NCBI GenBank assembly: GCA_043808365.1
Contig: JAZDEZ010000016.1
Span: 1-53,146, forward strand
Direction of reading: 5' to 3'
Source: Patescibacteria group bacterium
GTDB lineage: Bacteria > Patescibacteriota > Patescibacteriia > UBA10025 > JAHIVO01
DNA length: 53,146 nt
The first letter of the stretch is position 1. The number at the start of each line of letters is the position of its first letter. The position numbers were made by a program, and so were the translations under genes. The notes beneath the pieces are model-generated. The model saw only the letters and a list, made by a program, of their open reading frames with translations. It did not search any database and was not told the origin of the DNA. Shown here in pieces: positions 503 through 51,760 of the stretch.

Positions 503-800
503 GGGTTTCCGCCAGAGGCGGACCACGTTGAATGACGTGGCGAGTCCCACCACCCCGATTCTACCTTCAAAATCTATTCCGGGTTTGCCGCTCCACTATT
601 ATTCTCAAATGAAAGCGGCATCCCGCCTTCATGGCGGGACAAGTCCCACATCCCCGATTTAAAAATCAAATTTCTAAAGTGGGACTCGAAGGACGCGAAC
701 AGGTGAGCGTCCAGGCCGAGTGAAACGAGGGAGTCCCGGCCTGCCCTGAGCGAAGCCACCGAGTGAAATCGAGGTGGCGAAGCCGAAGGGATCCCCGACA
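503..800 (+). pseudogene. Three relic tRNA-Pro-like 3' ends interrupted by palindromic inserts
   Basis: GGGTT[508-540]CGAGTCCCACCACCCCGA; CAAGTCCCACATCCCCGA (640-657); GAGTCCCGG[740-790]ATCCCCGACA. The intact 3' end is AAGTCCCGGATCCCCGACA. Confidence 0.7.
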
Positions 801-6587: not shown

Positions 6588-6740
6588 CTAATTTCTTCAG
6601 CCAGAGGCTGATCCGCCTATGGCGGAAATTGCTAATTCCTAATTTCTAATGAATATCTCATTCCCGAATGTCCAATTGACCATTGAATCATTGGTTATTG
6701 ATACGTTATTTGTAATTTTGGATTTGATATTTTGGATTTG
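6588..6740. repeat. 7-nt-periodic AT-rich palindromic element with an embedded CAGCCAGAGGCTGA/TCCGCC..GGCGGA doublet
   Basis: AATTTCT/AATTCCT-type units, then ATTG..-type inverse units; homologous to 23086, 32924, 33508 and 51616. Confidence 0.7.
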
Positions 6741-7119: not shown

Positions 7120-7773
7120 TTATTTGCTACTTGCGAAGCGAACCGCAGGATCGTTGTCATGCCAGTCGTTGCCGAGCCAGCCCCAGCCCAGCACCACCTC
7201 GCCGTCGCTCACATACAGATACGGGACGAGGAGGCCGCCATCATTGCGGTTCAGCACGACCGACTTCCAGAAGTAAACGACCTTATTGCCGAATGCTTTC
7301 TTGAAAGCGGCGACCCCCAGTTTTTGAATGGCCAGGGCATCTTGCAGGTTTCCGCAGGACTCGAGCATGTTGTTCTTCTTGAGATGGTCGTAGATGACTT
7401 TGTCGGTGGTCACACCGCCGTTTTTCTGCTTATCGTGCAGCCACAGCGACACGTCCTTAGCCAAGTCATACTCGGCAAGTCCTGTGCATTCCAGCTCGGG
7501 ATGCATGACCTTGCCCACCCAGTCGGGATAAACAGGTCGGATCAAGCGGTCTACATGGACGACGGTACTGATAGAAGTTTCCTCCTTCGGTCCGGCAAGC
7601 CCCATAATCAGTTTCGTAAATCCGGTTTGGAGTTCCCAGCCACGATGCACGACACGCTGCAACTGCGCTTCATCGAGTCCACAGTCGTCAAGCGCGATCC
7701 CGCATGTTTGCCGAATGATCTCACGACCTTTCCGGCTCTCGGATGCGATCAATGTTTTTAACATCGCCATCAT
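7120..7773 (-). CDS. Putative diversity-generating retroelement (DGR) target protein with C-terminal variable region
   Basis: C-terminus NRNDGGLLVPYLYVSDGEVVLGWGWLGNDWHDNDPAVRFAS: fixed hydrophobic scaffold alternating with NNC/NNT codons, as expected from mutated AAC/AAT template codons; AAGGAGG SD. Confidence 0.65.
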   Translation of the reverse strand: MMAMLKTLIASESRKGREIIRQTCGIALDDCGLDEAQLQRVVHRGWELQTGFTKLIMGLAGPKEETSISTVVHVDRLIRPVYPDWVGKVMHPELECTGLAEYDLAKDVSLWLHDKQKNGGVTTDKVIYDHLKKNNMLESCGNLQDALAIQKLGVAAFKKAFGNKVVYFWKSVVLNRNDGGLLVPYLYVSDGEVVLGWGWLGNDWHDNDPAVRFASSK

Positions 7774-7839
7774 CCTCCTTCTTGAATTGAGGTTATTACC
7801 TGACTACCACCCTTCGACTTCGCTCAGGGTAAACTCATG

Positions 7840-7964
7840 ATAGCCCTAGCAAACAAACTCCTACATTTAAGAGCCTATTTGCTAGGGCTATTTTAGATAT
7901 ACGCAAGTAGCTGTTAAGGTACTAAATAACAGGGCATATTAGCATGGGATAGCGGTTTTGTCAA
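7840..7964 (-). promoter_or_regulatory. Sigma70 promoter and 14-bp leader inverted repeat of the 7120-7773 gene
   Basis: TTGACA (7959-7964)-17 nt-TAATAT (7936-7941); perfect IR ATAGCCCTAGCAAA (7840-7853)/TTTGCTAGGGCTAT (7878-7891). Confidence 0.7.
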
Positions 7965-8054
7965 GCCTCCGGGGAGGGCGCCAACCCTAAAAAGACGATA
8001 TTTCATCGTTTCTTTGCCCTCTGCCCGCTTGTGCCTCGCATGGCAGGCGAGTGC

Positions 8055-8394
8055 TGGCTGCGAGACCTGCCCCGCCCTACTTTAATATATTTAATTAATT
8101 GTGGCGGGGGAACCAGGATTAACGGATTCAGCCCGCCCCGCCTGCTTCGCGCATGCGCGATCCTCTTCTATTCTCCGAGGCTTGGAATCGAACCAAGATT
8201 GCATGATTCAGAGTCATGCGTCCTACCGTTAGACGACCTCGGAGAGCAGCAGAGGAATTGGTTGTTTGATATTAGTTATAATTAAGGGCGGCGAAGCGGG
8301 CCGGGGAGTCCGTCGTCCTACCATTCCCGCCCAAAGGGTGGGTCCGCCTCTGGCGGAAGACCTGCCCTGAGCGAAGTCGAAGGGCGATCTCGCA
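8055..8394 (-). pseudogene. Full-length tRNA-Gln(CTG) relic interrupted four times; the intact tRNA lies inside one insert
   Basis: Removing 8070-8109, 8132-8306, 8326-8357 and 8361-8384 gives TGCGAGA TC GTCT AATGGT AGGAC G ACGGA CTCTGAA TCCGT TAAT CCTGG TTC-----CAGG TCTCGCA G CCA. Confidence 0.85.
8173..8243 (-). tRNA. tRNA-Gln(CTG), intact
   Basis: Acceptor TCCGAGG/CCTCGGA, anticodon arm CATGA-CT CTG AA-TCATG, T-arm CTTGG TTCGATT CCAAG. Confidence 0.95.
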
Positions 8395-8430
8395 GCGCTG
8401 TGTTCAATTATCAAATAATATATCCTACAT

Positions 8431-8593
8431 TGTATGATTCAGCCTGCCCCGTCAATTTCGAACGAAGTGAGAAATTATACGGGGAGTCATGCGTCCCCGC
8501 CTCTCCGGCGGGTCGCCGATGAGGCGACTACAATTCTTCAGTCCGCCTCTGGCGGAAGACTTACCCTGAGCGAAGTCGAAGGGCGATCTCGCA
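8431..8593 (-). pseudogene. Second tRNA-Gln relic (5' two-thirds) with four palindromic inserts
   Basis: Removing 8443-8484, 8496-8527, 8536-8556 and 8560-8583 gives TGCGAGATCGTCTAATTGTAGGACGCATGACTCTGAATCATACA. Confidence 0.8.
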
Positions 8594-8606
8594 ATAAGGT
8601 CAGCCA

Positions 8607-8635
8607 ATATTACAAAGAATCCTGAAATTTATCAA
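8607..8635 (-). promoter_or_regulatory. Sigma70 promoter of the tRNA-Gln locus
   Basis: TTGATA-17 nt-TAATAT just upstream of the relic 5' end at 8593. Confidence 0.6.
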
Positions 8636-8649
8636 GTTTCTATAATCCA

Positions 8650-10218
8650 TTAATCTTTTGCCGCGGTTTCGCCAAACACCTGCATCGCCTGGTCCCACAG
8701 GCTTCCTCCCTGCTCTGTTTGATGCGCCGGTTGAAGCTTGCTGAATTCATCGCTAGGCAGCACTACAGTTGCCAGTGCCAACTTTTCTCCGAAAAGGTGT
8801 GCACAAGCATCTTCAATAATCGAACGGATTGAGCGTTCTTTCAAGCGTTCAGCGTGTAATTTATGCTGGAACGCTATGATCAGCTGGTCCTTATCAAATT
8901 TATAGGGATGGCCCATTTTAAGGGATAATCCGGCTGAATGGTTGTGCGTCCTGACTGACGTAACGAGTTCTGCCCATGCTGATTTGATGGAATCCATGCT
9001 GACTTTACCAGGAGGCTTATTGCCAGTGGCCGGTTTTGGATGCTTGGCCGGTACGTCGGGAGTCTCGATGCTTTTTTGGCCGGACGGATTACCGGGCGGC
9101 GTCCGCTTATCATCCGGACGAGCTTCCTGATCCGTACACAATTCAACAACTGCCAATTCCAGCGGCAGCTGGACAATCTGGCTGTACCGCGCATCCCGCG
9201 ACTTGGCCATGAGCTTTTCGATGATCTCAACGAGCCGACGGGCTGTTACCTGGGCAGTGAGCTCTACCACCTCTATCATGAGATCTTTCCCCATTTCCAG
9301 ATTTTCCAGCTCATCTTTTATTGAGCTGATTTTATACACCAGCGCCTTTCTAAAAAATTCAATGGCATCCTGCGAAAAATCCACAATATTAATCCCCTCG
9401 TCAACGAGGCGATTGATCACCAGGAGTCCGGCGGCCGCATCGCGGACTACCAGCGATCGGTAAAATTCCATGATCAAACTAAAGTTTGAGTGAGGGATAA
9501 TGAGTGACGACACTTCTGCCGTAATATGCTTCTCCCCGAGCGAAAGCAATTGCCCGAGGAGCACTTCGGCGTCGCGGACCGAGCCTTCGGCGCGCCGGGC
9601 GACCGAACGCAACACGTCTTCGTCCGCATCCGCCTTTTCCTCCTTGGCGATAAACCGCATGCGGGTCAGCATGTCATCGATGCGCGCGCGCTTGAAATCA
9701 AACCGTTGGCAACGGGAGATGATCGTCTCTGGCACGCGATGGATCTCCGTCGTCGCCATAATGAAGATAACGTGGTCCGGCGGTTCTTCCAGCGTTTTGA
9801 GGAGCGCATTAAACGCCGAAATAGACAGCATATGCACTTCATCGATAATAAACACTTTATACGCGAAGCGCTGCGGCGTGAAACGGGAATTTTCGATAAT
9901 ATTTTCCCTGACATTGTCCACGCCGGTATGCGAAGCGGCGTCAATCTCGATCAAATCAAGCGCCCGTCCGGCGGCAATTTCCCTGCAGGCATCGCATGTA
10001 CCGCATGGCTCGCTCTTTTTTTTATCCGTACAATTCACGGCCTTTGCCATCAGCCTGGCCATAGTCGTCTTGCCGACCCCGCGCGGACCGGAAAACAGGT
10101 ACGCATGGGCAATGCGCTTATGTTCGATCTCGTTTTGGAGCGTGACGACAATCGGCCGCTGGCCAACTACCTCAGCAAAGCGCTGCGGACGGTATTTTCT
10201 GTATATTGCCTGTGACAT
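8650..10218 (-). CDS. dnaX: DNA polymerase III subunit gamma/tau
   Basis: YRKYRP, GPRGVGKTT, Zn-binding cysteines, EIDAAS, IIDEVHML, SRCQ; start reassigned to MSQAIY at 10218. Confidence 0.96.
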   Translation of the reverse strand: MSQAIYRKYRPQRFAEVVGQRPIVVTLQNEIEHKRIAHAYLFSGPRGVGKTTMARLMAKAVNCTDKKKSEPCGTCDACREIAAGRALDLIEIDAASHTGVDNVRENIIENSRFTPQRFAYKVFIIDEVHMLSISAFNALLKTLEEPPDHVIFIMATTEIHRVPETIISRCQRFDFKRARIDDMLTRMRFIAKEEKADADEDVLRSVARRAEGSVRDAEVLLGQLLSLGEKHITAEVSSLIIPHSNFSLIMEFYRSLVVRDAAAGLLVINRLVDEGINIVDFSQDAIEFFRKALVYKISSIKDELENLEMGKDLMIEVVELTAQVTARRLVEIIEKLMAKSRDARYSQIVQLPLELAVVELCTDQEARPDDKRTPPGNPSGQKSIETPDVPAKHPKPATGNKPPGKVSMDSIKSAWAELVTSVRTHNHSAGLSLKMGHPYKFDKDQLIIAFQHKLHAERLKERSIRSIIEDACAHLFGEKLALATVVLPSDEFSKLQPAHQTEQGGSLWDQAMQVFGETAAKD

Positions 10219-15771: not shown

Positions 15772-15991
15772 TTCCCTGGACAAAAAAATTATCGAAAGGA
15801 TGAGAAATACATCCGATCGATATCACACACGAAAGCGCCATAGAGTTCTACTCTCTAGGCGCTTTTTTCATTCTTAACCGATCTTGCCAAAATCCAAAAT
15901 ATGTGCTACAATATATTTATGGAATATCCGCCAAAGGCGGATCCGCCTTCGGCGGAAAATAAAACTTAAACAAAACCAAAAACAACAAAAT

Positions 15992-32923: not shown

Positions 32924-33105
32924 AAATTTCTAATGACGAATTCCTTCGGCCAGAGGCTGATCCGCCTCCGGCGGAAATTTCTAATCAATGTCTAATTCTT
33001 GAATGCCCAATTGGTCATTAAATCATTACGGATTTGCCTGCCCGCCTCTGGAGGGACCCGGAATCTCTGTTTGACCGAGACCCTGAATCAAGTTCAGGGT
33101 GACAA
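32924..33105. repeat. 7-nt-periodic element plus REP-like palindromes
   Basis: AATTTCTAATGACGAATT[CGGCCAGAGGCTGATCCGCCTCCGGCGGA]AATTTCTAATCAATGTCTAATT; ACCCTGAATCAAGTTCAGGGT. Confidence 0.7.
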
Positions 33106-46287: not shown

Positions 46288-46477
46288 TAGCGCCTACCGG
46301 ATTCCCCCGCTATTAAGCGGGGTCCGCCCTCATTTGAATTAATATCGGTGGGCGGAGAACCCGAGTTTCTTGGATGACCTGCCCGCCGCAGGCCGTAAAT
46401 AGCGCGTGTGGGATTCTCCGCCAGAGGCGGACCCCGCCCTACCTTGATTTACAATATTTTTTTGTGGCGGGGGAACC
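46288..46477 (-). pseudogene. Two relic tRNA-Glu-like 3' ends, both interrupted in the T-loop
   Basis: On the + strand: TAGCGCCTACCGGATTC[46305-46356]GAACCCGAGTTTCTTGGATGA and TAGCGCGTGTGGGATTC[46417-46472]GAACC. Confidence 0.8.
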
Positions 46478-46484
46478 GATGAAA

Positions 46485-47956: not shown

Positions 47957-48080
47957 AGTTTTCGTCTATATAAGTCTAATAAATCATTCATAAACGCACA
48001 CGCCCCGTTACTCCGACCCCGTATCCACAATTTCGCTCCGCAAAACGGGGCAGGCAAGTCCGGGGGAGGAGTCATACGGG

Positions 48081-51615: not shown

Positions 51616-51760
51616 AATTTCTAATGACGAATTTCTTCGGCCAGAGGCTGATCCGCCTCCGACGGAAATTACTAATAAATTTCTAATCCCTGAATGTCTA
51701 ATTGGTCATTAAAATCATTGGAGCTTAATTAGTAATTAGAAATTAGGAATTGGTCATTTC
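51616..51760. repeat. 7-nt-periodic palindromic element between scpA and scpB
   Basis: Very similar to the 32924 copy, including the CGGCCAGAGGCTGATCCGCCTCC..CGGA insert. Confidence 0.75.

Follow-up and report, generated by a model that had tools for sequence, protein, structure and literature searches.

The window, by which we mean the whole stretch of 53,146 nucleotides analysed here, is contig C16 of a 24-contig genome (G000) of 1.03 Mb, 88% complete and with 0.3% contamination. A tRNA-Gln(CUG) locus in the window adjoins dnaX, and this neighbouring gene argues that the DNA is of bacterial origin. ARAGORN predicts three tRNA genes for the window, among them tRNA-Gln(CUG) at 8244..8172 on the - strand; this intact gene scores 62.7 bits in Rfam. 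The locus also contains two interrupted copies of tRNA-Gln(CUG), here called relic A and relic B. When the region 7700-8800 was searched with Rfam at E values up to 10, neither relic was called a tRNA and the intact gene alone was returned. The stretch as a whole was absent from every run in a sequencing-run search, with a best share of words of 0.12, and the contigs compared from run X1 (RNA) contain repeat elements and part of the tRNA only, within foreign flanks.

A scan of 7780-8700 detected 4 promoter-like sites, against 0.8 expected from shuffles. One of these is a sigma-70-like promoter that ends 13 nt before the start of relic B. From 8600 to the working tRNA-Gln the scan detected no further sigma-70-like site, leaving this promoter as the sole upstream site within the locus, and the same promoter is present in nearly identical sequence in a sister genome, G001. 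A strong promoter-like sequence (TTGACA-17-TAATAT with a TG) was seen at 7936-7964 (- strand), upstream of an unannotated 217-aa ORF at 7120-7773; behind it lie an inverted repeat with 24-nt arms (7840-7891) and then, at 7810-7832, another copy of the element called X below. The promoter and relic B can be laid out as follows, with a caret marking each insertion point within the tRNA sequence:

8635..8607, - strand: sigma-70-like promoter TTGATA-17-TAATAT, from the promoter scan, with 9/12 consensus matches
8593..8429, - strand: relic B, positions 1-47 of tRNA-Gln(CUG) with four inserts and the 3' third missing, from direct reading and alignment
8593..8584, - strand: relic B, tRNA positions 1-10
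8583..8560, - strand: insert X, 24 nt, at G10^T11 of relic B, from a 20-nt repeat family
8559..8557, - strand: relic B, the TCT between X and Y
8556..8536, - strand: insert Y, at T13^A14 of relic B, a 15-nt GC hairpin plus a 6-nt tail
8535..8529, - strand: relic B, D-loop piece of seven bases
8528..8497, - strand: insert W, at A21^G22 of relic B, a nested hairpin of 30-32 nt
8496..8485, - strand: relic B, tRNA positions 22-33
8443..8484, + strand (as written): insert Z, at T33^C34 of relic B, a 42-nt GC-clamp hairpin with a CCTG tag
8442..8429, - strand: relic B, tRNA positions 34-47, where the tRNA similarity stops

A first-pass annotation, made from the letters of the sequence, had described a promoter followed by the 5' two-thirds of a tRNA-Gln with four inserts, and this description is confirmed by the coordinates, by alignment and by an orthologous relic, promoter included, in G001. 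The inserts follow tRNA positions 10, 13, 21 and 33, and positions 48-76 are gone. Excision of each of the four inserts restores contiguous tRNA sequence, with zero duplication and zero loss in every case. A hairpin-aware alignment of the intact tRNA to relic B gave a score of 72, compared to 28-33 when the query was reversed. In its profile version, the same aligner has a null maximum of 132 and mis-parsed relic B with a score of 123, and so the identification of relic B rests on the exact-query runs and on direct reading. Spliced-alignment scans were set aside, since a cheap gap allowed 611 of 927 windows to pass by chance and a dear gap lost short exons such as TCT. The acceptor arm of relic B (TGCGAGA) is that of relic A, and its anticodon stem (CATGA) is one base apart from that of the intact gene, so that the allele pattern first noted (acceptor like relic A, anticodon stem like the intact tRNA) is accurate save for this one base.

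Relic A begins 34 bases after the end of relic B and encloses the working gene:

8394..8055, - strand: relic A, a complete outer tRNA-Gln(CUG) with encoded CCA, from direct reading
8394..8342, - strand: a 53-nt block (acceptor, X, TCT, Y) that is 96% identical to 8541-8593 of relic B
8306..8132, - strand: a GC-clamped cassette of 175 nt in the anticodon loop of relic A, which carries the working tRNA-Gln(CUG) at 8244..8172

The inserts of relic A are a copy of X at G^TCT, a copy of Y plus a second hairpin at TCT^AAT, and the 175-nt cassette at CT^CTG. The T-loop of relic A also holds a CCTG-tagged hairpin and has lost 5-9 nt. Direct reading of relic A thus bears out the earlier observation that the three sites G^TCT, TCT^AAT and CT^CTG are occupied in both relics, and likewise that the anticodon-loop inserts differ, being the 42-nt hairpin Z in relic B and the 175-nt cassette in relic A. 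The cassette has the form of a long GC-clamped stem around the working tRNA, with the leader and trailer of the tRNA pairing with each other (fold z -3.8). Its termini match those of a cassette at the same site in a relative, G020, at 14/16 and 20/22 bases, and the interiors of the two cassettes are unrelated. The nested arrangement of relic A and cassette also appears, at about 91% identity, in an independent contig, from run X5. An assembly artefact was considered as an explanation for the layout and rejected, because of this X5 contig and because analogous loci are present in genomes assembled into one to three contigs.

The four inserts of relic B are not of one kind. X belongs to a family with 14 copies in the genome at up to 3 mismatches (<=3), and the copy in relic B is identical over 23/23 bases to that at 7810-7832. 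Its G^TCT junction is ambiguous by one base, and X has no significant hairpin as DNA (fold z = -0.22). Y folds strongly (z = -4.82) and is interpreted as a twin-hairpin element whose second hairpin is mostly gone; a complete twin hairpin occupies TCT^AATGG of a tRNA-Glu(UUC) relic on contig C21. Adjacent twins of 15-nt GC hairpins, about 30 nt each, are also present in non-tRNA contexts of the window, at 6597-6626, 15927-15956, 32946-32975 and 51637-51666, and the junction motifs of these twin hairpins each occur 12-14 times in the genome. W (fold z = -4.21) has a single full copy in this genome by blastn-short. In metagenomes it is a dispersed repeat, with a summed depth of about 400 in run X2 and many unrelated flanks, and in the X2 contigs the unit ends at 8496/7 and 8529/31.

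Z (fold z = -4.05) carries a CCTG tag beside its GC clamp, as do the T-loop element of relic A and the copy of X in relic A. The ends of Z resemble those of the 175-nt cassette, with 80% identity over 25 nt, 7 of which are tRNA bases. None of the relic inserts, which range from 21 to 175 nt, contains an ORF. Precise ends, the lack of target duplication, hairpin form and multiple copies, together with the diversity of W flanks in metagenomes, argue that the inserts are mobile, non-autonomous elements.

Comparison with relatives indicates that the occupied sites are used repeatedly. Three unrelated palindromes are found at G^TCT in five genomes, namely X in G000 and G016, a second family in G001 and in a strain sampled by run X2, and a third in G021. 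In the relic of G001 that is orthologous to relic B, the palindrome at G^TCT is a different one of 38 nt and there is nothing at TCT^AAT. The CT^CTG site holds Z in 3 of the 401 genomes of the class (G000, G012 and G015), the three genomes being from one family, and the three tRNA-Gln alleles that bear it differ in their acceptor or anticodon stems. These Z copies have a common inner sequence, which argues that they derive from one source lineage rather than being three random members of the repeat family. In G000 and G020, two genomes from two families, CT^CTG is occupied by a tRNA-carrying cassette with GC clamps, and in G001 and G002 by other inserts.

The first-pass annotation had suggested that insertion positions be tabulated across tRNA relics and tested for enrichment. 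This was carried out on 31 tRNA-Gln loci and, genome-wide, on 35 insert junctions, and clustering was found in both. Among the 31 tRNA-Gln loci, 12 have a relic that scores above the highest reversed-profile null, and these relics together with relic B contribute about 32 insert junctions that, in alignments read by eye, fall mostly on five coordinates. The genome-wide automatic table of 35 junctions beside intact tRNA genes, which leaves out relic A and most of relic B as too diverged, has six junctions between positions 56 and 57 (56/57), six at 35/36, three at 21/22 and three at 13/14. A loop base is touched by 27 of the 35 junctions (null mean 12.3; 0 of 5000 permutations reach 27), and there are 38 same-site coincidences across different tRNA species (null mean 7.5; 0 of 5000 permutations reach 38), figures that are inflated somewhat by tandem duplicates and a few weak long gaps in the table. 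One T-loop element is found at 56/57 in relics of tRNA-Gln, Glu, Val, Ala and Arg.

Some of the hairpins are also concentrated near tRNA genes in general. Those with CCTG and a CCCCG clamp have an intact tRNA gene within 600 nt in 16 of 19 cases, and such ground makes up 3.7% of the genome; only 2 of 16 hairpins with CCTG and CCCGC are near tRNA genes. Among the three CCTG+CCCCG hairpins away from tRNA genes is one in the window, at 48003-48054 (- strand). A generic search for CCTG with any 5-bp stem was abandoned, since its 274 hits compare with 53-275 for control tetranucleotides, and the CCCCG-clamp subfamily was used instead.

The window contains two other tRNA loci with interrupted pieces. 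The 3' part of a tRNA-Pro(CGG) lies at 576-657 (+ strand), downstream of the intact gene at 394-467, and has two adjacent hairpins (54 nt) in its T-loop at 55/56. Downstream of tRNA-Glu(CUC), at 46350-46480 (- strand), there are two T-loop relic pieces, each interrupted after TTC by an AT-rich GC-clamp hairpin plus a 15-nt hairpin, and the same composite is present in Gln, Val, Ala and Arg relics elsewhere.

Recurrence of insertion at fixed tRNA sites is supported by these results. The initial suggestion that insertion is site- or structure-specific and recurrent gains its support from the unrelated palindromes at G^TCT and CT^CTG and from the genome-wide clustering. Of the three sites common to relics A and B, CT^CTG holds different inserts in the two relics; the two D-arm inserts lie within the 53-nt block of 96% identity and are not independent. 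We propose that the elements would insert without a footprint and would prefer a few coordinates in or beside the tRNA loops, at 10/11, 13/14, 21/22, 33-36 and 56/57, and that different palindromes would share spots across copies, tRNA species and genomes because of this preference.

Direct evidence for recombination between the tandem copies came from a contig of run X2. This contig has the promoter, the first ten bases of relic B, a relative of the G001 palindrome at G^TCT, TCT, and then, without Y, the body of relic A and its cassette; it matches the window over 58 and 55 nt with no mismatch on either side. It is the product expected of a crossover between B and A in the shared TCTAATGG stretch, and recombination between the tandem copies is thus real. 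The first-pass annotation had also held that the copies recombined, and this B/A chimera in a near-identical strain upholds the claim. The argument then offered for it, the mosaic makeup of relic B, does not stand. The pairing of an A-type acceptor with an intact-type anticodon stem is also found in the relic of G001, where the locus has no copy of the third, intact-type allele, and the relic of G002, which has lost its 5' acceptor arm, retains this anticodon stem together with the corresponding 3' strand of the acceptor. The recurrence of the combination in these two genomes argues that the mosaic is a genuine allele.

The X-TCT-Y block common to A and B is probably a copied block rather than the result of two separate insertions. 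The sister strains carry another palindrome at G^TCT of relic B, and the block in B is nearly that in A, and gene conversion is therefore the simplest origin for X and Y of relic B. It is possible, on the other hand, that the same conserved elements inserted independently at the X and Y sites of B.

The history of the locus can be followed in relatives that share the conserved dnaX-tRNA-Gln synteny. G013 and G003 have a single intact gene at the locus adjoining dnaX, with no relic B at the locus in G003. In G001, which belongs to the same genus, the same promoter precedes a B-type relic that is broken after position 33, and allele A comes next in intact form. Allele A is also intact and hairpin-free in G003 and G012, and is the working gene in all three of these genomes. 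In G000, B and A are both broken and a third allele is intact, and in G002 this third allele resides in another cassette, close to the 5' end of a B-type relic whose 3' half survives. Relic B is broken wherever it is found. These states argue that B was disabled before A, and A before the present gene arrived, and the locus is thus a stack of successive replacements in which the order of copy deaths can be read, with the order "B older than A" resting on the position and state of the copies.

The explanation that we favor, and consider probable as a whole, combines serial replacement with preferential, footprint-free hairpin insertion at tRNA loop coordinates and with exchange between copies. 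Relic B would be the dead remains of an older, promoter-proximal tRNA-Gln(CUG) copy beside dnaX. Serial overwriting would have begun when B was disabled and allele A took over, and in this genome A would then have been split in its anticodon loop by the GC-clamped cassette that brought in the present gene. The dead copies would have been colonised by small palindromic elements without proteins, namely X, the twin-hairpin Y, W, and the CCTG-tagged GC clamp Z, and the tandem copies would trade sequence by homologous recombination. Relic B may persist because the only promoter that can be recognised lies on one side of it and the working gene on the other, and if it does persist for the sake of the promoter, the wreck would belong to the leader.

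The reading as a stack of replacements also fits the paralogous tRNA-Gln(UUG) locus on contig C22, as well as many other tRNA loci of the genome. The C22 locus (C22:12900-13620) has three 5' relics with a hairpin at TCT^AAT, a downstream T-loop composite hairpin, and a small GIY-YIG ORF (C22:13091-13294) between a relic and the intact gene. In G021 (L005 1240-1697), a relic of the 5' half of tRNA-Gln with two hairpins is followed by a near-identical tandem duplicate, both upstream of an intact gene whose 3' end and trailer are duplicated downstream.

Two rival explanations would account for the shared sites without any targeting. The simpler of these supposes that a single hairpin-bearing tRNA-Gln was doubled in tandem after insertion, which would make the sites shared by A and B uninformative. 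The near-identity of the 53-nt X-TCT-Y block in the two relics is as this model predicts, and relic units have been tandemly duplicated elsewhere, both in G021 and on contig C22. A and B are nonetheless different alleles with different anticodon stems, A is intact and hairpin-free in three relatives, and B as found in G001 and the X2 strain has the other palindrome at G^TCT and none at TCT^AAT. Furthermore, the sequence directly after Y differs between A and B, as do the anticodon-loop inserts, and the same coordinates are occupied in other tRNA species. We regard a single duplication as quite improbable for the locus as a whole, and the duplication reading survives for the X-TCT-Y block only, in the form of gene conversion. 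The first-pass annotation had itself set its proposal against one duplication combined with random positions elsewhere, and as a full account that case is contradicted by G001, by the X2 contig and by the clustering. A second model, in which palindromes entered once at a random site and spread solely by homology through the conserved flanks of tRNA genes, would convert the clustering into a measure of spreadability. This model draws strength from the inner sequence of Z being the same in three genomes at the Gln site, from the presence of X at the same site in two genera, from the sharing of Y plus the second hairpin by relic A and a different allele in G002, and from the recombination between copies that is directly seen. 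It does not readily explain why sequences with no relation to one another share a junction, as three do at G^TCT and at least four do at or beside CT^CTG, nor the many unrelated flanks of W in metagenomes. The element at 56/57 is found in five tRNA species that share flanks of only about 5-6 nt, and flanks of this length are too short for ordinary RecA-dependent homologous exchange. Spread by homology as the sole process is unlikely, although we give it more credence than any of the other alternatives.

Two further models ascribe the fixed sites to RNA processing or to nucleases. If relic A or B were a multi-intron tRNA gene with inserts removed from the RNA, as occurs in some archaea, one would expect what is in fact seen, namely inserts at defined positions that form stems and whose removal yields an exact tRNA sequence. 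However, B is without its 3' third and A without part of the T-loop, an intact gene with the same anticodon lies inside A, and the junctions, by inspection, are without a bulge-helix-bulge arrangement. The 88%-complete genome also gave no match to the splicing endonuclease (PF01974) in a search in which 4 of 4 archaeal controls were positive, and we find the intron model scarcely credible. Cuts by tRNA-directed nucleases, for example small GIY-YIG proteins, could produce fixed sites at which palindromes are repair filler or captured DNA, and several GIY-YIG frames do lie beside tRNA genes or relics, including at the paralogous tRNA-Gln(UUG) locus. The genome has 15 GIY-YIG matches in 1 Mb, 14 of which are small open frames of 82-145 aa, and at least eight, by their coordinates, have a tRNA gene no more than a few hundred bases away (on C3, C7, C19, C21 with three, C22, and at the start of C5). 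None of the 15 is on this contig, however, and the inserts are conserved repeat families with precise ends rather than unique filler, which makes nuclease scars a very improbable origin. We are committed instead to structure-directed hairpin insertion plus recombination between copies.

Which enzymes might move the elements can be approached from the gene content of the genome, which encodes one IS200 transposase and five homologues of REP-type tyrosine transposases, three of the five scoring above the NCBIfam cut-off for REP-associated tyrosine transposase. Inspection of these six genes revealed none flanked by X, Y, W or Z. Two of the six, the REP-type homologues at C8:22382-22963 and C1:24358-24885, have obvious flanking palindromes of other families, each gene being flanked by its own small family. 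An integrase domain was absent from the 7 neighbouring ORFs scanned. Among relatives, a REP-type transposase match was found in 25 of 41, and the presence of such a gene (RAYT) does not track the presence of relics. The search gave no match in four genomes with hairpin-bearing relics (G001, G015, G016 and G021). The repeats could be old, and two of the four, G001 and G021, are incomplete; the listed completeness of G015 and G016 is 100%. No common target motif was found in the 5' flanks of the 16 tRNA-linked CCTG+CCCCG copies.

The preference for loops and stem-loop junctions suggests recognition of extruded or single-stranded tRNA-gene DNA. The elements may travel as hairpins of single-stranded DNA that enter tRNA-gene DNA in its folded state, and HUH tyrosine transposases are possible agents of this movement; we would hold the assignment to a transposase loosely, as something rather more apt to prove wrong than right. 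A more ambitious hypothesis, which we put forward tentatively and with well short of even confidence, is that a guild of protein-less hairpins in ultra-small, CPR-type bacteria reads cloverleaf-like tRNA-gene DNA and inserts at particular nucleotides in the D-, anticodon and T-loops, leaving no footprint. Members that carry a tRNA would be kill-and-replace drives that leave nested wrecks, empty members would riddle the wrecks, and the enzyme would be either an HUH transposase in a new mode or one as yet unrecognised.

Genes for tRNAs are among the most conserved and essential sequences of this genome of about 1 Mb, and yet they are the main playground of mobile DNA here. If the elements do read tRNA-gene structure and insert at single defined nucleotides, they would illustrate a new targeting principle for bacterial mobile DNA, and if tRNA-carrying relatives of these elements do replace the resident gene, they would provide a route for the turnover and horizontal spread of tRNA alleles. 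Wrecks of this kind confuse tRNA annotation, and the succession of gene replacements is recorded in their nested layers in datable form. The polymorphism among near-identical strains indicates that the process is recent enough to be studied in natural populations.

There are parallels with the REP and REPIN sequences that are mobilised by RAYT tyrosine transposases (PMC3116915, PMC3337134). Both are short, multicopy palindromes without proteins and with a tetranucleotide tag at one end, and the genome has RAYT-type genes. The published REP tags are GTAG and CGTC (PMC3733652), whereas the tag here is CCTG, and the same paper reports that transposase genes and repeat families are not clearly correlated. 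REP and REPIN sequences are extragenic and often form inverted doublets, whereas the present elements reside inside dead tRNA genes at fixed coordinates, with Z and W as singlets and the Y type as directly adjacent twins. A further difference is that no RAYT-like gene was seen flanked by these families and that four relic-bearing relatives gave no RAYT match.

Single-strand transposition of the IS200/IS605 type, including that of its miniature derivatives, depends on hairpins and leaves neither a footprint nor a target duplication. The footprint-free inserts, the hairpins and the IS200 transposase of the genome resemble this system, but no conserved target tetranucleotide was found 5' of the inserts here, and the elements have single hairpins instead of two different subterminal ones.

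Integrative islands and prophages target tRNA genes, and the SegB endonuclease of phage T4 is encoded within a tRNA cluster. As in those systems, the tRNA gene is the landing site, a working copy is restored or carried in, and a displaced fragment is left behind. The inserts described here differ in having no integrase or transposase, their cargo being a tRNA between GC clamps or nothing; in addition, the insertion points are single nucleotides in loops, and the layers are nested. A SegB-like cassette is further distinguished by its nuclease, as there is no GIY-YIG gene beside this tRNA-Gln(CUG). Among eukaryotic elements, the Dada transposons are described in the cited account as targeting tRNA genes (PMC8869645).

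Tiny GC-rich hairpins are also known from compact mitochondrial genomes, in the form of hairpin-forming and double-hairpin elements and of GC clusters, and in the portions of the literature cited these are often tandem and also enter RNA genes (PMC2800124, PMC4478555). The same portions place them in organelles, mostly in intergenic or variable rRNA regions rather than in bacterial tRNA relics, and make no mention of fixed tRNA coordinates or of gene replacement (PMC2800124, PMC4478555). The multi-intron and split tRNA genes of archaea (PMC4090602) likewise have several interruptions per gene at recurring non-canonical positions, but the present case is a bacterium without a splicing endonuclease match, in which neither interrupted copy is complete and an intact one exists as well. 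The openly accessible literature covered contained no account of hairpins inserted at fixed coordinates of tRNA genes, nor of bacterial tRNA genes replaced in nested fashion. The finding falls within the field of miniature palindromic mobile DNA, and there is a substantial chance that the targeting principle itself is new.
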